Of a DNA stretch of 5,460 bases, positions 1 through 5,460 are shown one piece after another. This DNA comes from a virus (Duplodnaviria > Heunggongvirae > Uroviricota > Caudoviricetes), in the IMG/VR virus record IMGVR_UViG_2778261570_000010, positions 1-5,460 of that record; one strand, written 5' to 3'. Numbering within the stretch: the first letter of the stretch is position 1; each line of letters begins with the position of its first letter. A model generated the notes under the pieces. It saw only the letters and a program-made list of their open reading frames with translations, was not told where the DNA came from and ran no database searches. A program made the translations under genes and the position numbers.

Positions 1-106
1 TGGGGCTTTTCTCTATCTGCCTTTTGGTGTTCATGCCTGAGACAGATAGCCTCAAGCACCCGCTGCAATCCTACTTAACTCTGCCGTTACAGCAAACCGT
101 TTTCGC

Positions 107-130
107 CCGATATGGGAATTCCCATATCGG
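107..130. repeat. Perfect 24-bp palindrome CCGATATGGGAATTCCCATATCGG centred on GAATTC; function unknown
   Basis: Read directly: positions 107-118 are the exact reverse complement of 119-130. No T-tract follows on either strand, so it is not a canonical intrinsic terminator. Lies about 120 bp downstream of the minus-strand binding-protein gene. Confidence 0.5.
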
Positions 131-195
131 AATGAATTCAGTTCACCTGGCGAGGCTTAGCGTACAATTTTTTCCGTTTTGTGAGCTGCCCCTAC

Positions 196-213
196 ATGCC
201 GCTGGCGCGGCAT
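196..213 (-). repeat. GC-rich stem-loop (7-bp stem ATGCCGC/GCGGCAT, 4-nt loop) with a partial REP-like flank (CCGGATGC on the minus strand)
   Basis: Inverted repeat seen in sequence, 37 nt downstream of the stop of the 250-1008 gene on the minus strand. Resemblance to enterobacterial REP elements is partial and from memory. No U-tract follows, so it is a possible 3' mRNA-stabilising hairpin rather than a terminator. Confidence 0.3.
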
Positions 214-249
214 CCGGAAAAAGAATCCACGTCCTGAAGAACGAGGATG

Positions 250-1008
250 TCAAGTGCCTTTCCTGGTCCAGCCATATTTTTTGAATGCAGGCGCCGCTTC
301 ATCGGTTTGTAGCCATTCTGCAAATCGACGGGTTTCATCATTTGCATCCTGACGTACTGTAATGTTCATATCACGCCATATCACGTAGTCTGGCGCTATT
401 TCCACGACATCACCAATTTCTGGATTACTGGCTGCCCAGTCAGCCCAGGTTATCCAGACATCTGCTCCAGGCTGATTCTCAAGAGCCTTACGTGCAGTTC
501 CGCTATTGGGCGCATATAAAATAATATTTTTTCGGATTGCGGCGACAGTTTCTATATTCCCTTTACGTCCAGCAATATCTTCCCAGACGCCAGTGCCTGA
601 TGTATTACTGGTACCACCACCATCATTAACAATTACGCCAATCCCAGGTCTGGTCAGGTCGTCAATACTCCGGATATTTTTAGGATTACCTTTCTTTACC
701 AGTAAAATACTTTTTCGCAGATAAAGAGGCTGAATATCTTTTTCACTGAAGCTGTCTTTATGGTCCCGAATGATAGCCAGAGCAGATTGTTCTGATGCGC
801 CAAACAAGATATCTGCATTTTTTTTGGCATCTTCATTCCATTTGTTCTGTGGGCCGTAATGAACGTTCACTATAATACCTGTTTTTTCGGCATAAAGTTT
901 GGCTGCATCAAGCAAGGCTGTATGCGGGCCACCAGGACCATACAGATTGATATCAGCATAAGCAGCAGAAGACAGGAATATTAAAAAACCTGCCATTATG
1001 TTCCTCAT
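250..1008 (-). CDS. Periplasmic substrate-binding protein, ModA-like (type-2 PBP, oxyanion-binding family), with N-terminal Sec signal peptide
   Basis: 252-aa ORF with ATG at 1008-1006, preceded by AAGGAG and a 6-nt spacer. N-terminus MRNIMAGFLIFLSSAAYA followed by DINLY looks like a signal peptide with an AxA cleavage site. The ADILFGAS segment and the C-terminal FKKYGWTRK resemble ModA motifs (PADLFISA, FKRYGFTIK) as I remember them. The gene looks more AT-rich than the replication genes. Confidence 0.75.
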   Translation of the reverse strand: MRNIMAGFLIFLSSAAYADINLYGPGGPHTALLDAAKLYAEKTGIIVNVHYGPQNKWNEDAKKNADILFGASEQSALAIIRDHKDSFSEKDIQPLYLRKSILLVKKGNPKNIRSIDDLTRPGIGVIVNDGGGTSNTSGTGVWEDIAGRKGNIETVAAIRKNIILYAPNSGTARKALENQPGADVWITWADWAASNPEIGDVVEIAPDYVIWRDMNITVRQDANDETRRFAEWLQTDEAAPAFKKYGWTRKGT

Positions 1009-1172
1009 AAAAAACTCCTTTTATTGGTTATCATGAAATAAAGTTATAAACACTACAAATAATATATATTACATCCAGATAAACTTATCCGACTTTACCT
1101 CGTGCATAGCTTGTTATTTAAAGTCAACAAAATAAGGAAAATTATACGCATATTGAAGAGTATAAACCTTAC

Positions 1173-1200
1173 ATGTTGATTACATTTTTGTAATCAACAT
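1173..1200. promoter_or_regulatory. Perfect inverted repeat ATGTTGATTACA-tttt-TGTAATCAACAT (12-bp arms, 4-bp spacer) in the AT-rich region upstream of the binding-protein gene; candidate regulator binding site
   Basis: Read directly: 1173-1184 is the reverse complement of 1189-1200. It sits about 165 bp upstream of the start codon at 1008, in a roughly 250-bp AT-rich non-coding stretch. No flanking T-tract that would make it an intrinsic terminator. Confidence 0.4.
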
Positions 1201-1259
1201 CCTGTTTGGAATAGCCAGCCTTTAATGGATAACTATTTCTGACAATGCAATGAGTATAA

Positions 1260-1738
1260 TCAAGTCCATCTTCCACTGAGAATTTGAGGCGGCATGCTTT
1301 TTCCGGCTCTTGCCGGATATCCGTAATTGTCCATAATCTGCAGATTTATACCTTCTGCATGACCTGTCAGCGAAAATTTGTCCGGTGTTTCTACGGGAAT
1401 GACATCAAAAGTTACACGCACTCGCGTTACCGTGTAGACCTACTTTCCTGCACTTGCAAGATCACAGTGGTGTAACCGTAACAGGAATTTATTCTCTGGA
1501 CCGGCAGTAAATCCCTGAGTGGCGTGGTTCCCATATCAATTTCCCGCCAGGCAGCCTCCATTGCCAGCGTACAGGCTGGAGCCATGACCTGCCCTTTAAA
1601 TCTGGCCCGACCATCCCACCGGACGTGTTCTTCTCCCCTGAACTTAGGTACAGTCATCTCCAGTGGCACAAAAGTGTCAGCGCCATAATTTTTGACCGTT
1701 ATCGCGCTACGGATATTTTGTTGACTGGTGAAAATCAC
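1260..1738 (-). pseudogene. Frame-disrupted ORF remnant of unknown function: GTG-initiated 103-aa frame (1427-1738) continues in another frame down to a stop at 1260-1262
   Basis: The 1427-1738 minus ORF ends at TAA 1427-1429, but a second minus frame is open from about 1439 to TGA at 1260-1262 and encodes protein-like sequence (…VTFDVIPVETPDKFSLTGHAEGINLQIMDNYGYPARAGKS…). Two consecutive protein-like frames separated by one frame change suggest a frameshifted gene. I do not recognise the family. Confidence 0.35.
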
Positions 1739-1867
1739 CCCGCAGAATCAGGCTTGTTCCCTTAACCCGGGCTTTCATCCTGACCGCCGCCTCACTACGA
1801 CCAATCAGACTGCCGATGCATTTTACCTTCATTGTTAGTATCATAATTTCAGGCCTGCACCATCCGC

Positions 1868-2509
1868 TCATTGCCCGGACTTCCGACAAATCCCGGCAAC
1901 CATATCCCGGTGCTTGTTCAGCTCCCGCAGCGCGGCGCAGACTCGCTCCCACTTCTGGACATGACTTTTCGCCCGGCGCAGTTCGCGGTTTGCCATATGC
2001 AGCGATGGTAAAATCAGGCCATTCGCTCGCGTTTCAGTAAACGATGGCAACGATTGCACAATATCAGCCACAGTTTCTGTTTTAATATCTTCCTGTGTTG
2101 CAGCTTCCTGTGCTGGTAAATTACCGCCCGGCATGCAGTAACGAAATTTACCGTTCTGATTAACGCGAATCAGACAACCTTTGCTGATTGCCATTGCCAG
2201 TGATGAGTTCACCCTGCGGGAAGTAATTCTGAACATCAATGCAAGTTCATCAGCAGCTTTAGGACCATGCCGTTCTATCGCCTCAATCAGCATCTGCGCT
2301 GTCACTTTCGGTGCCTGTGTCACAGTGTCATTTTCGTCGCTTTTTTCATTTGTCAGCCACCACATCGAGCCTTTGTTATCTGCCCACCCCCGACGCTTCA
2401 GCTTCCACAGTTCGTTAATCGCTTCATCGCGCGTCATTCCCAGACGTGCTGTAACTTCCTGTGATGAGGCTTTTCCCATCGCTTTCAGTGCGTCAAAAAC
2501 AGTCTCCAT
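1868..2509 (-). CDS. Prophage protein of unknown function with a winged-helix-like N-terminus; possibly DUF1627 family
   Basis: 213-aa ORF with ATG at 2509-2507, preceded by GGAGG and a 6-nt spacer; stop TGA at 1868-1870. The N-terminal METVFDALKAMGKASSQEVTARLGMTRDEAINELWKLKRRGW looks like a small winged-helix DNA-binding fold. The DUF1627 assignment is from memory and unverified. Confidence 0.7.
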   Translation of the reverse strand: METVFDALKAMGKASSQEVTARLGMTRDEAINELWKLKRRGWADNKGSMWWLTNEKSDENDTVTQAPKVTAQMLIEAIERHGPKAADELALMFRITSRRVNSSLAMAISKGCLIRVNQNGKFRYCMPGGNLPAQEAATQEDIKTETVADIVQSLPSFTETRANGLILPSLHMANRELRRAKSHVQKWERVCAALRELNKHRDMVAGICRKSGQ

Positions 2510-2541
2510 AAATTTCCTCCCGGTAAAAATTACTTCTCAAA

Positions 2542-3207
2542 TCAGACAAACCCAGCCGCTTTCCGGCGTTCATACTCCTGTTTCAGCAACTCAATTGGTG
2601 TTGGCCCCGACGGGCGTTTTGGTGCTGCCAGTTGCCGCCGTACGGGCGGAACGCTGAGGCCGTTACCAACATGCTTTGCCCATTTTGTAAGCTGCCGTTC
2701 CGCAAGTCGTTTTAACTCCCCCTCGGTCATCTGCCGCTCAATCCCCTTTGAACGCATCTCGAGGCAAATGTGATACAGCACAGGCTGAGACCACGGGTAT
2801 TTATCGCTCCCGTCGTATCGCCAGGACTCGTTGCGCCAGCGGCGGTACTCCTCCATCACGTTATCCACCGTCAGACCAAATGGATTTGCCCCACTCTCCG
2901 AAATCAGCGCAACAAACTCAGCCAGGTCCGGAGGCCATGTTTCACCCGCCCGGCAGCGGTCCATGCACTGGCGGCAGACCTGTCGGATTTGCTGCTCAGT
3001 CATCGCACCAATCTGTGCAATCCAGAGCTTCGAAGGTGCGGCCCCGTTCTTCTGGGTCCAGCGGTTCGAATAAACCTCCCCCATGAGTTCCCACAGCTTC
3101 CACGCCGTTTCCGTCGAGGATAAATCCGTTTTCACGTTCCCACTGCTCACGTGCTGCCCGAATTTCCTGAACTGCCCGTGATGCGGTGTCACCTGGTGCT
3201 GCTGCAT
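2542..3207 (-). CDS. Replication protein P-like (lambda P family, DnaB helicase loader)
   Basis: 221-aa ORF. Aligns by eye with remembered lambda P: the YPW motif, TEGELKRLAERQL versus TDAELRRKAADEL, and a similar C-terminal tail. ATG at 3207-3205 is preceded by AGGGGG and a 6-nt spacer. That start lies 212 nt inside the O-like ORF in another frame. Internal ATGs at 3084 and 3003 are alternatives, but they would remove residues that align with lambda P. Confidence 0.75.
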   Translation of the reverse strand: MQQHQVTPHHGQFRKFGQHVSSGNVKTDLSSTETAWKLWELMGEVYSNRWTQKNGAAPSKLWIAQIGAMTEQQIRQVCRQCMDRCRAGETWPPDLAEFVALISESGANPFGLTVDNVMEEYRRWRNESWRYDGSDKYPWSQPVLYHICLEMRSKGIERQMTEGELKRLAERQLTKWAKHVGNGLSVPPVRRQLAAPKRPSGPTPIELLKQEYERRKAAGFV

Positions 3208-4036
3208 GGTTTACCCCCTTGCTGACTGGTTTAACCTGCGCCCTGACGTGATTTACGTGACGGGCGAATTTCTGCTCCCACTGAACCTGCGTGAACACTT
3301 TGCCCTCATCGCTCCAGTAATCCCGGAATGCGGCAAGTTCAGCAGGTGTAAATTCCGGCTCCGGCAGAGCCACTCCCCACAGAGCCGCCCGTCGTCGAAA
3401 ATCCCGTGACGGATGCCAGCTATCGGTCATCGGAAATTTTCCGATGGGTTCGCTCAGGCCATCCAGGAATACGGGTGGCACTGCCTGTAACGACAAAACT
3501 TCCTGCTCACTGGTCGGAGCACTCTCGCGTGCGTTATGTGTGGGGTTTAGATCTTTGGGTTCCTTTGGGTTCCGTGATCCGTTTTTGGGTGTCTTTGATG
3601 GAAAATTTGGGTGTCTTTGGTTATTTTCCATGCAGCTAAGAGTTCCGTTTTTGGGTCTGTTTTGTGCTGAAACATAACCATTTTCGGTACTGTTTTTATT
3701 AACAGTACCAATTTTACCCACCTTTAAAGACTCCCGTTTTTGGGTGTATTCAGGCTCGGCAACACTTTCTTCTACACCGATAAGTCGGTACACTACGATT
3801 TGCTTTGTTCGGCCTTTTCTCTCACCGGTATCAACAATTAACCCAATCTCCATCAGGTGTCGTAAGCTGTCCTGCACAGTCTTTTTGTTCAGTTCCGTTA
3901 CTTCTGCCAGGGCAGATACAGACGGGTATGCACACAAATCGGCACCGCACATATCAGCAAGCCAGGTCAATACTGACTTACTGGATGAACTGCCGGTTTT
4001 CACCTTTTTAGCCCATCGTAGTGCATCGATACTCAT
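2996..4036 (-). CDS. Replication initiator (O-like): N-terminal HTH DNA-binding domain, low-complexity linker, C-terminal DnaT-like ssDNA-binding domain
   Basis: Start chosen at ATG 4036-4034 (MSIDALRWAKK…), preceded by AGGGG and a 5-nt spacer. The longest ORF begins at a TTG at 4111 with no SD. The C-terminal region (GKFPMTDSWHPSRDFRRRAALWGVALPEPEFTPAELAAFRDYWSDEGKVFTQVQWEQKFARH) closely matches the C-terminal domain of E. coli DnaT as I remember it. The linker has repeated PKNG motifs encoded by the iterons. Stop TGA at 2998-2996. Confidence 0.8.
   Translation of the reverse strand: MSIDALRWAKKVKTGSSSSKSVLTWLADMCGADLCAYPSVSALAEVTELNKKTVQDSLRHLMEIGLIVDTGERKGRTKQIVVYRLIGVEESVAEPEYTQKRESLKVGKIGTVNKNSTENGYVSAQNRPKNGTLSCMENNQRHPNFPSKTPKNGSRNPKEPKDLNPTHNARESAPTSEQEVLSLQAVPPVFLDGLSEPIGKFPMTDSWHPSRDFRRRAALWGVALPEPEFTPAELAAFRDYWSDEGKVFTQVQWEQKFARHVNHVRAQVKPVSKGVNHAAAPGDTASRAVQEIRAAREQWERENGFILDGNGVEAVGTHGGGLFEPLDPEERGRTFEALDCTDWCDD
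3551..3752. other. Putative phage origin of replication: iteron cluster (core TTTGGGT, longer form CCGTTTTTGGGTGTCTTTG) plus AT-rich segment with a 9-bp inverted repeat, inside the O-like gene
   Basis: Direct repeats seen at 3554-3560, 3564-3570, 3579-3597, 3606-3619, 3645-3663 and 3734-3752. AT-rich stretch at 3664-3730 contains GGTACTGTT-ttttat-AACAGTACC (3686-3709). The layout (iterons plus AT-rich region in the initiator's interdomain linker) mirrors ori-lambda inside gene O. Confidence 0.55.
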
Positions 4037-4559
4037 ACGAACCCCTGGCAGACATTTGTTTATCTGCAAAGTAATATTGATATTGCTGACGATACGCATG
4101 CTTGAAAGCAATAGCTTTTTCTATAAGCTCGTCAGTCTCACGTTCCACAACAGCTGGATCCGCAAAAAGCAGCCCGGACTCCACCACATCGCCATATTCT
4201 TTGTTTAATCCGGCGATCATGTACGTAATGCTTTTTCCATCACTGATCTCACGATACAACCTGAAATCACTAATTCGGATAGCCTCCATAATTGCCGGAA
4301 TCAGCGCCGTGAATTTTTTCCGCTTATCCCTGGTGTCGATAGCTTTCCAGCGTTCGAATATCTTCACCCGGTTAACGCCCAGCGCCCGTTGATCAACCTC
4401 GCCATCATTAAACGTGACGCGTTGAACATCGATGTTCGGGCGTTCTTTCAGAGCCCAGAATGCTTCCGTGATTAATATCGTCGCCTGCTCCTGTGTCATT
4501 CCTGGTCGACATATCCAGGCATCCAGAGCCTCACGAGCCTGTTCAGGAGTGATTTTCAT
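4008..4559 (-). CDS. YdaT-family protein (prophage cII-position regulator)
   Basis: 183-aa ORF immediately downstream of the Cro-like gene, overlapping its stop by 17 nt. ATG at 4559-4557; stop TAA at 4010-4008. Resembles remembered Rac YdaT (MKI… N-terminus; the LIPAI…RL segment). Its position matches cII in lambdoid early-right operons. Confidence 0.65.
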   Translation of the reverse strand: MKITPEQAREALDAWICRPGMTQEQATILITEAFWALKERPNIDVQRVTFNDGEVDQRALGVNRVKIFERWKAIDTRDKRKKFTALIPAIMEAIRISDFRLYREISDGKSITYMIAGLNKEYGDVVESGLLFADPAVVERETDELIEKAIAFKHAYRQQYQYYFADKQMSARGSYEYRCTTMG

Positions 4560-4773
4560 TGTTCAACCGCCCCGCCCGCTTCGTCTTACGATATTCATCA
4601 TAAACTTTGGGATCATACTGAAGCTCCCCGCCAGATGCCTCCTGTAGACGCATCGCGCGACCTTCGGGAACTAAATCCCCTTTCCAGCTATAAAGCGAAG
4701 CCAAACGAATACCTGCTGCTTGTGCAAGTTTTGTTTTTGAACCGAAATACAAAAGAGCGTCAGTTTTAAGCAT
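4543..4773 (-). CDS. dicC: Cro-like HTH repressor, DicC-type
   Basis: 76-aa ORF divergent from the CI-like gene; ATG at 4773-4771 preceded by AAGGTG and a 7-nt spacer. The sequence (MLKTDALLYFGSKTKLAQAAGIRLASLYSWKG…) has the Cro fold signature and matches my recollection of E. coli DicC. The gene symbol is from memory and needs BLAST confirmation. Confidence 0.8.
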   Translation of the reverse strand: MLKTDALLYFGSKTKLAQAAGIRLASLYSWKGDLVPEGRAMRLQEASGGELQYDPKVYDEYRKTKRAGRLNNENHS

Positions 4774-4856
4774 TTAAAACACCTTTATTGTTAGTCATAA
4801 CTAACAAGATAGATGTTAACAAAAACATAGTCAATACGATTTAGCATTAGCTAACT
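4774..4856. promoter_or_regulatory. Divergent dicC/dicA control region with two 14-bp palindromic operator candidates and a candidate leftward promoter
   Basis: Palindromes TTAGTCATAACTAA (4791-4804) and TTAGCATTAGCTAA (4841-4854) read directly. On the minus strand: -35 TTGACT (plus 4834-4829), 17-bp spacer, -10 TATCTT (plus 4811-4806). The first palindrome overlaps the predicted transcription start of dicC; the second ends 2 nt before the dicA ATG. Confidence 0.5.
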
Positions 4857-5264
4857 ATGGAAACAAAAAATTTAACTATCGGCGAACGCATCAGGTATCG
4901 TCGGAAAAACCTCAAACACACCCAAAGGTCTCTTGCTAAAGCCCTGAAAATCTCCCATGTGTCTGTATCACAATGGGAACGGGGTGATAGTGAACCTACA
5001 GGGAAGAACCTTTTTGCCCTCAGCAAAGTATTGCAATGCTCACCAACATGGATTCTATTTGGCGATGAAGACAAGCAACCAACACCACCTGTTGAGAAGC
5101 CAGTTGCCTTATCCCCCAAAGAACTAGAGCTCCTTGAGCTGTTTAATGCACTGCCAGAATCAGAACAGGATACCCAGCTCGCCGAAATGCGAGCTCGAGT
5201 AAAAAACTTCAATAAACTCTTTGAAGAATTACTAAAAGCCCGTCAGCGGACAAATAAAAGATAA
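4857..5264 (+). CDS. dicA: CI-like phage repressor of the DicA type (XRE-family HTH, no S24 peptidase domain)
   Basis: 135-aa ORF, ATG 4857, stop TAA 5262-5264. N-terminal HTH (…HTQRSLAKALKISHVSVSQWERG…) with a helical C-terminus. The sequence matches my recollection of E. coli Qin-prophage DicA, with divergent Cro-like partner. Symbol from memory, unverified. Confidence 0.85.
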   Translation: METKNLTIGERIRYRRKNLKHTQRSLAKALKISHVSVSQWERGDSEPTGKNLFALSKVLQCSPTWILFGDEDKQPTPPVEKPVALSPKELELLELFNALPESEQDTQLAEMRARVKNFNKLFEELLKARQRTNKR

Positions 5265-5286
5265 CATCATCAATGAGTTATCTTTT
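5256..5286 (+). terminator. Weak AT-rich hairpin (AAAAGATAAC … GTTATCTTTT) overlapping the dicA stop codon; possible terminator
   Basis: 10-bp inverted repeat with an 11-nt loop, ending in TTTT, seen in sequence. The stem has only two G-C pairs, so stability and function are uncertain. Confidence 0.25.
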
Positions 5287-5324
5287 ACCACATCAATTAT
5301 GTTAGCTATAGCATACAAAATCAC

Positions 5325-5353
5325 TTGACCGATATGTTAGTCATGGCTAATCT
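5325..5353 (+). promoter_or_regulatory. Candidate rightward promoter (-35 TTGACC, 17-bp spacer, -10 TAATCT) overlapped by a third operator-like palindrome TTAGTCATGGCTAA (5337-5350)
   Basis: Motifs read directly. The palindrome shares the TTAGY-N4-RCTAA pattern with the two sites in the dicC/dicA intergenic region. Location matches the position, as I recall it, of the DicA-repressed dicB-operon promoter downstream of dicA in E. coli K-12. Confidence 0.45.
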
Positions 5354-5430
5354 TGTTTGCATCAACACACCGCACGGTGTTCTCAGCAAACAGTTCCGCT
5401 ACCCCAGCGTTAAGGGGAAATGAGGTCAGC

Positions 5431-5460
5431 ATGGATACTATCGATCTTGGCAACAACGAA
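5431..5460 (+). CDS. 5' end of a small ORF (MDTIDLGNNE…), truncated by the window edge; possibly ydfA-like, first gene of the rightward operon
   Basis: ATG at 5431 preceded by GAGG (5422-5425) and a 5-nt spacer. Only 10 codons are visible. The ydfA resemblance is from memory of the K-12 gene order (dicA, ydfA, ydfB, ydfC, dicF, dicB). Confidence 0.4.
   Translation, partial: MDTIDLGNNE

Follow-up and report, generated by a model that had tools for sequence, protein, structure and literature searches.

In the replication modules of phages lambda, phi80 (gp15-gp14) and EC.W1-9, the gene of the initiator (O) is followed on one transcript by the gene of the helicase loader (P), and the two genes share only the 4 nucleotides (nt) of an ATGA overlap. 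The lambda initiator gene carries iteron-like repeats. Lambda O binds P through its COOH region, P binds O through its N-terminal part, and Oam205, in which O is shortened by its last five residues, is an O-defective allele (PMC6022878). Lambda P has a four-part architecture made of a disordered N-terminal lasso, helical domains II and III, and a C-terminal lasso, and the disordered N-terminal lassos have been proposed to engage O (PMC12661323). Here we analyze an O-P module in a stretch of 5,460 nt of DNA from a virus of the Caudoviricetes (positions 1 to 5,460 of IMG/VR record IMGVR_UViG_2778261570_000010), which we call the window. The module has the same gene order, a P of the same family, and an initiator gene with iteron-like repeats. 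However, its O-like gene runs 212 nt into the P-like gene in another reading frame, which gives O a tail of about 55-70 extra residues. The best explanation, to which we give a probability of roughly 0.87, is a genuine and anciently conserved dual-coding overlap on the same strand, with P starting at position 3207.

Gene overlap as a phenomenon is already well known, and the case described here is a long same-strand phage overlap in a lambda-type O-P module. The closest analogue is the Rz/Rz1 spanin pair of lambda, two co-operating proteins that share DNA but are read from it in different frames of one strand. The pair is overlapped in some related phages and separated in others (PMC6139136), and O/P modules also occur in both forms. 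The spanins serve lysis rather than replication, and in lambda the whole of Rz1 is embedded, while O and P overlap only at their ends. The interaction of the overlapped segments is established for the spanins, while for O and P it is only a proposal. Overprinted viral genes also form long, out-of-frame overlaps on the same strand that are rich in disorder and in which synonymous change is suppressed (PMC8227390, PMC6195259). As in those genes, the two frames seem to differ in age, P being the older and the O tail the newer. The difference is that the newer frame here is a C-terminal extension of an existing neighbor and is carried with the older gene onto different partners. A full-text literature search found no description of this overlap, although its coverage was incomplete and the result is no proof of novelty.

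Layout and conservation of the overlap

The O-like gene (4036..2996, minus strand) has a 1041-nt coding sequence (CDS) for a protein of 346 amino acids (aa), and the P-like gene (3207..2542, minus strand) encodes 221 aa in its full-length form. The stop codon of O is the TGA at 2998-2996, and the start codon of P is the ATG at 3205..3207 (minus strand), embedded in O codons H277/A278 (CAT GCA). The shared segment extends from 2996 to 3207, exactly where an earlier note on this DNA had placed it. It contains O codons 277-346 with the stop and P codons 1-71, and each P codon begins at the second base of an O codon (P frame = O frame +1). The C-terminal peptide in the O frame is TFEALDCTDWCDD. 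Within this one window the overlap does not exceed chance, with the P-frame open reading frame (ORF) staying open over the O codons in about 27% of synonymous resamplings. Its significance therefore comes from comparison with other genomes.

The region is matched by 2175 of 5426 complete E. coli genomes (about 40%), and in 906 of them the match spans at least 80% of its length. O ends at the same place and in the same frame in those 906 genomes and in 80 IMG/VR contigs. A scan of one genome per species gave 27 Enterobacterales loci with 44-92% P identity. At 22 of these loci a long O ORF continues past the first P ATG and stops 149-242 nt beyond it, always with P in the O+1 frame. The other five comprise a frameshifted pseudogene in Leclercia, two degraded remnants, a remnant without O, and a locus with the P frame open further upstream. 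Two loci (L067 and L026) have a P frame that is open further upstream with an earlier ATG, and their apparent overlaps are 428 and 545 nt. The Erwinia locus (L032) is a prophage remnant beside a PTS transporter gene; it seemingly has P without an overlapping O but is uninformative.

The arrangement also occurs in Vibrio phages. In phage D75 the initiator has 286 aa, the P-like ORF encodes 219 aa, and the overlap between the two is again exactly 212 nt, with the P ATG in the same "VNH" codons of O, and its P is 32% identical to the window P over residues 1-132. Four further Vibrio phages have overlaps of 191-230 nt. Four of these five Vibrio phages, together with 18 Enterobacterales lineages, form the set of 22 used for the tests of the overlap described below. 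The alignment of homologous O/P pairs proposed in the earlier note shows the overlap and both open frames conserved across these 22 deep lineages. Homologs with an O ending near 3200, which would have pointed to an indel, were seen only in a different type of module, that of EC.W1-9 with its non-overlapping, lambda-like P.

Constraint on the two reading frames

Both frames remain open far more often than the coding of one protein alone would allow. When the P protein was fixed and its codons were resampled, the O frame was open in about 0.03 of the trials per lineage; when the O protein was fixed, the P frame was open with an ATG in about 0.11. Synonymous resampling of P predicts 29.5 + 28.1 O-frame stops in the overlap across the 22 lineages, and the observed number is 0 + 3, the three being the true O terminators. 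P-frame stops are likewise absent (0 versus 30.6 expected). In the controls, three stretches of P contain 49, 62 and 29 O-frame stops (36, 63 and 34 expected), and an equal-length stretch of O-only sequence upstream contains 65 P-frame stops (57.6 expected).

Sequence diversity is reduced in the same segment. Among 80 distinct sequences, synonymous polymorphism (pS) is 0.10-0.22 in the single-coding flanks and 0.011-0.054 in the overlap, a 3-10 fold reduction in either frame. The ratio of overlap to flank diversity in the E. coli clade is 0.29 (95% confidence interval 0.18-0.44), and the wobble-position peak is gone. Over the whole overlap, O-changing mutations that leave P unaltered are about one third as frequent as silent mutations in P-only sequence (odds ratio (OR) 0.32, p=3.5e-5), and those that alter P but not O are depleted to the same degree (OR 0.31, p=1.9e-4). 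The search for synonymous-site constraint suggested by the earlier note thus found change suppressed in both frames, and over the whole overlap purifying selection is detectable on each frame.

This constraint is divided between the two halves. The upstream half (P residues 2-35, O residues 278-311) is conserved in the O frame, and the downstream half (P residues 36-70, O residues 312-346) is conserved in the P frame. At 3131..3187 (minus strand), in the upstream half, O has the motif T284-ASRAVQ-I--A---W299 and P has the variable, disordered residues ~7-26 of domain I. At 3010..3123 (minus strand), in the downstream half, P has the domain II helices 29-54 and 60-66, and O has a disordered tail of glycine and acidic residues. 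Constraint on O in the upstream half is strong (OR 0.15, p=1e-5), as is constraint on P in the downstream half (OR 0.17, p=3e-4). Across the deep lineages, identity in the upstream half is 0.289 for the O frame and 0.220 for the P frame, with 0.138 expected. An RNA element was considered as a cause of the low variability and rejected. An Rfam search of the window gave no hit, the RNA structure around the P start is nothing unusual (z=0.21), and positions 2400-4300 contain no promoter-like or terminator-like sites.

The P protein, its start, and alternative readings

Several family tests place P among the lambda-P-type loaders. Pfam PF06992 (Phage_lambda_P) matches P residues 56-188 with 62.2 bits, above the cut-off of 26. 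The PHROG profile of P-like helicase loaders (1e-62) aligns residues 19-220 with positions 22-235 of 236, and in tblastn residues 18-221 match the lambda-like P of phage EC.W1-9. The AlphaFold2 (AF2) model of P predicts disorder in residues 1-30 (predicted local distance difference test (pLDDT) <50), helices at 29-54, 60-66, 71-86 and 95-104, further helices within 114-181, and a last helix at 204-217. The top three PDB hits of this model in Foldseek are the lambda P chains of 9oa1, with a probability of 1.00 and TM scores of 0.34-0.38, and the alignment to chain Z spans 224 columns. The low TM scores are attributed to the flexible linkage of the domains. As modeled, P has the four-part layout of lambda P, with an N-terminal lasso, helical domains II and III, and a C-terminal lasso. 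By these tests P is a lambda-P-type loader with a putative role in DnaB remodeling. The earlier observation that P aligns with lambda P nearly end to end holds at the level of profiles and structure; when P is compared directly with lambda P, by BLASTP or by PDB profile, only residues ~86-193 match.

P itself is mosaic, as judged from its sequence. The P of Vibrio phage D75 (locus L004, 2001-2660) is not recognized by Pfam Phage_lambda_P and resembles the window P only over residues 1-132. The P proteins of phi80, HK639 and mEp237 are similar to it only over residues 93-221, at about 50% identity.

The ATG at 3207 has the features of a main start site. It is preceded by the Shine-Dalgarno (SD) sequence AAGGGGG (3214..3220, minus strand), which lies within the O CDS and encodes O K273-G274, and by a 6-nt spacer (TAAACC). 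The duplex with the 16S 3' end has an energy of -11.7 kcal/mol, which bears out the strong SD with a 6-nt spacer reported from the first inspection of the sequence. In 18 of 20 lineages an SD of the GGAGG/GGGGG type (dG <= -6.4) stands 3-8 nt upstream of the P ATG, and this conserved SD accounts for the conserved Gly-Gly in O. P homologs down to 47% identity retain the 212-223 aa form with an invariant M1. Among 18 full-length homologs, the Vibrio phage protein included and with identities down to 27%, residues M1, W39, K53, N54, G55, P58 and W62 are invariant. A comparison of P residues 1-110 with 1.84 billion representative proteins gave 130 clusters, most of them matching from query residue ~20-40 on.

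Current annotation places the start of P further downstream. At near-identical E. coli loci (L001, L002), PGAP annotates the 346-aa O together with a P of 153 aa (462-nt CDS) that begins at 3003 and overlaps O by 8 nt. GenBank phage records start P at 3003 or later, and the protein databases hold versions of the P gene with 221-223, ~180, 153 and 140 aa. The P that RefSeq starts at 3003 is probably truncated at its N terminus, a widespread error that comes from the avoidance of long overlaps. The RefSeq starts and several of the GenBank phage starts drop about 70 residues, including the N-terminal lasso and two domain II helices, and gene callers that forbid long overlaps will repeat the truncation.

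The two in-frame internal ATGs that the earlier note had listed as possible starts are present, at 3082..3084 (P M42) and 3001..3003 (P M69) on the minus strand. If P began at ATG 3003, coupled to the O stop in the arrangement ATGACTGA, or at ATG 3084, the P frame upstream would be untranslated. Many gene callers choose M42 or M69, M42 is nearly invariant within the Enterobacterales, and the ATGA-type arrangement at the O stop, from which the 153-aa P with its 8-nt overlap is annotated, resembles the coupling in lambda and phi80. Even so, a main start at either site is very improbable. Invariant P residues precede both ATGs: W39, K53, N54, G55, P58 and W62 lie upstream of ATG 3003, and W39 and the conserved block TAW-LWE lie upstream of ATG 3084. 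They sit in the predicted domain II helices, which distant relatives of P have as well, and are encoded in a frame that is free of stops across the whole overlap. In the AF2 model a start at M42 would cut helix 29-54, and a start at M69 would remove two of the domain II helices (29-66). ATG 3084 has a weak SD (-4.2 kcal/mol), and ATG 3003 has none, the best candidate being 16 nt away at -3.1 kcal/mol. M42 is replaced by Leu in Vibrio phage D75 and M69 by Leu in many lineages. A milder version keeps full-length P as the main product and adds, in the clade of E. coli, Klebsiella and Enterobacter, reinitiation at ATG 3003 after the O stop; this would yield a second, N-terminally truncated P isoform without domain I and half of domain II. 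Termination-reinitiation at such gene overlaps is a well-established mechanism, and ATGACTGA or ATGAGTGA is kept at the O stop in about half of the lineages. Outside the clade the arrangement is not kept: residue 69 is Leu there, and the O stop has other contexts. In addition, the ATG is forced anyway by the Asp-Asp/Glu C terminus in the O frame, so that no P-frame reason is needed for it, and the product would have a broken domain II in the predicted structure. We regard this second isoform as unlikely, though less so than an internal main start.

Two other readings concern O rather than P. Ribosomes may read O through the overlap to make a tail without function, with selection acting only on P and the position of the O stop being incidental. 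The ratio of nonsynonymous to synonymous polymorphism (pN/pS) of about 2 in the O frame of the downstream half, the non-significant polymorphism test there, and the predicted disorder of the tail would fit such a reading. We give it little credence, since constraint on P alone would leave O open with a probability of only ~0.03 per lineage and O is open in 22 of 22. Moreover, the invariant O motif T-ASRAVQ-I--A---W falls where the P frame varies, the terminal motif EERG..F..LD..DW is kept as far as the Vibrio phages, and mutations that are silent in P but change O are depleted 3-fold overall. The other reading, a sequencing error or recent indel that shifted the O frame and artificially lengthened O, was among the options of the earlier note, and the comparison with other genomes refutes it. 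Genuine frameshifted copies do exist elsewhere, namely in Leclercia (L030), in protein P0185, and in the fused O-P profile phrog_15931. However, the tail of O is conserved, with its invariant motif, in about 900 complete E. coli genomes and as far as the Vibrio phages; the O end and frame are the same in the 906 E. coli genomes, the 80 IMG/VR contigs and all the deep lineages; and PGAP annotates O without a frameshift flag. The genuine long dual-coding overlap, which the earlier note had offered first, thus remains the preferred explanation: the architecture is found in 22 lineages, stops are absent, diversity is suppressed, and the SD and ATG of P are kept.

Several observations weigh against this explanation. 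In the E. coli clade, constraint on O in the downstream half is weak (OR 0.53, p=0.077), as is constraint on P in the upstream half (OR 0.45, p=0.04). The weaker frame of each half is therefore only modestly constrained in the polymorphism test, and the case there depends on the maintenance of the ORFs in deep lineages. The lineages and pairs are not statistically independent and the modules are mosaic; pairwise and polymorphism counts were used. P residues 2-35 are poorly conserved (pN/pS 0.5-0.85), and an unconventional start between codons 1 and 36 is possible. AF2 confidence is low in P residues 1-30 and in the O tail, as would be the case for disordered segments, but this is no proof of disorder, and the direct matches to lambda P are confined to the central part of the protein. 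Finally, that both products are made from one mRNA, in the O and P frames, is a conclusion we draw from sequence.

The fused O-P copies join the two frames at different places, in Leclercia adecarboxylata (L030, 2474-2689), in P0185 and in phrog_15931, as expected for mutations or errors. The profile phrog_15931 has 482 positions and is matched by both O 161-345 and P 6-221; it was probably built around frameshifted fusion ORFs. A programmed +1 frameshift that would fuse O to P was rejected, there being no conserved shift site and P having its own SD and ATG. The contexts of the O stop differ among lineages (GAC TGA G, AAG TGA T, AAC TAA C, TGT TAG C), although no systematic scan for slippery sites was made.

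The O protein and a possible docking tail

From its N terminus on, O comprises a putative helix-turn-helix (HTH), a low-complexity middle part that contains the iteron-like repeats, a domain similar to DnaT, and a tail of 70 residues. The PHROG replication initiation protein profile phrog_1032 matches it at 1e-88, and the Pfam DnaT domain matches residues 201-267 with 64.3 bits (cut-off 25). HTH_36 scores 20.9 bits, below its cut-off of 25, and the N-terminal 67 aa are 34% identical to the initiator of Vibrio phage D75, whose HTH_36 scores 48.8 bits. The NCBIfam DnaT model aligns O 194-282 with DnaT 82-170 of 179 and scores 95 bits against a cut-off of 201. In terms of these families, O is a DnaT-domain initiator and not a DnaT equivalog. 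It has in common with E. coli DnaT the DNA-binding domain, to which the putative N-terminal HTH, the middle part with its iteron-like repeats and the tail are added. The NCBIfam alignment puts the tail at about 55 residues past the end of DnaT, instead of the approximately 45 estimated earlier. The DnaT-like domain of the window O takes the place that the C-terminal domain has in lambda O, and BLASTP of the whole window O against lambda O gave no match.

The low-complexity "PKNG" middle part of O contains repeats of the CCGTTTTTGGGT type in 3-4 copies at 3554-3750, and in the same region a second family, TTTGGGTGTCTTTG, in three copies. These repeats are probably the iterons of a candidate replication origin, as in lambda, whose ori lies inside O. 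Numerous prophages among the IMG/VR and E. coli loci are nearly identical to the window elsewhere but match it within O only at residues ~161-346. The N-terminal, putatively DNA-binding half of O (residues 1-160, 3556-4036) is therefore swapped separately, with the joint near the iteron-like repeats. Separate exchange of this half has been classically described for lambdoid O genes.

In the AF2 model of its C-terminal fragment, O has the DnaT-like domain, a linker, one helix (O 287-302, fragment residues 98-113), and a disordered tail (pLDDT <50). The motif T-ASRAVQ-I--A---W is invariant across homologs. A protein search started from the C-terminal fragment gave mainly partial proteins and contributed little more than rows for the alignment. 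At the C terminus, the acidic and aromatic motif FEALDCTDWCDD (2999..3034, minus strand) is kept as EERG..F..LD..DW in the Enterobacterales and in Vibrio phage D75, and the tail is 45% identical to that of D75 over 31 aa (E=3e-4). The terminal motif also resembles the C terminus of lambda O, LDLTNTDWIYGVDL (LDCTDW versus LDLTNTDW). This short motif is a lead that may reflect homology or else convergence toward a docking motif. Direct homology of the O tail to lambda O was not adopted, the likeness being limited to the short terminal motif. The C termini of the window O (FEALDCTDWCDD), lambda O (KLDLTNTDWIYGVDL) and EC.W1-9 O (HWNSPEAWEDFL) are all acidic and aromatic.

The tail is found on more than one kind of initiator. 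The O proteins of Pluralibacter (L033) and of Vibrio phage 199E37-1 (L118) are 48% and 49% identical to the lambda O C-terminal domain, and this similarity stops at about lambda O residue 274-276, exactly at the embedded P ATG, after which the window-type tail follows. The tail thus occurs on three bodies: the DnaT-like body of the window, the lambda-O-like body of L033 and L118, and a third kind in D75. In these comparisons the tail travels with P and not with O, and the conserved unit is the O tail with P domains I-II. The O of EC.W1-9 is DnaT-like, has 271 aa, stops shortly after its DnaT-like domain and is paired with a non-overlapping P. In lambda, phi80, EC.W1-9, Klebsiella RAH1 and Edwardsiella EPP-1, P is of similar or greater length and the overlap is only the 4 nt of ATGA. 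Related modules thus have an equally long P with a shorter O, which argues that P was not extended and that O probably gained its tail by overprinting of the P 5' end.

A mechanism for the overlap can be proposed from these features. Ribosomes in the O frame would pass the DnaT-like domain and then make the linker, the helix (TASRAVQEIRAAREQW), and the disordered acidic tail that ends in LDCTDWCDD. Other ribosomes would start independently at the SD and ATG of 3207, inside that linker, and make the 221-aa loader. The same bases would encode the disordered domain I of P and the first two helices of domain II. Given the contacts between O and P in lambda, the 70-residue tail may by analogy act as an adaptor that links the initiator to the loader, either alone or in complex with the helicase. 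The tail would then be a docking tail for the loader, and the same DNA would encode the end of P that faces O; that this proposal depends on an analogy counts against it. With the tail encoded within the P gene, an initiator body of any kind that recombines upstream of the P start would receive a tail matched to that P. The full proposal, that the loader gene carries a portable docking tail for the initiator in the second frame of its 5' end, and that any initiator body placed upstream acquires it, is tentative, and we hold it to be somewhat more doubtful than probable. If it is true, both sides of the interface lie in the same 200 nt, where they would be inseparable by the recombination that shuffles modules and would co-evolve base by base.

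The overlap is a deeply conserved case in bacterial viruses of co-operating proteins that share ~200 nt, and each frame appears to be ordered and conserved in the part in which the other one is disordered and variable. The arrangement offers a possible explanation of how initiator and loader stay compatible in mosaic phages: the tail, which lies in the loader gene and occurs on at least three unrelated bodies, presumably serves the hand-off. It also gives research on lambda-type replication a testable handle on the poorly mapped contact between O and P.

The module is flanked by other prophage genes. A cI-like repressor gene (4857-5264, plus strand) is divergent from a Cro/DicC-like gene (4773-4543, minus strand), which is followed by a YdaT-family gene (4559-4008, minus strand). 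The last 29 nt of the YdaT-family gene (4008-4036) are shared, in another frame, with the start of the O-like gene, and PGAP annotates the arrangement likewise. A DUF1627 gene (2509-1868, minus strand) lies on the other side of P. Further downstream, the minus strand carries prophage cargo at 250-1008 and ~1260-1740, consisting of the AcfC-family adhesin gene paa and a disrupted gene for a fimbrial protein. According to the annotation of a near-identical E. coli locus, the fimbrial-protein gene is frameshifted and has an internal stop.

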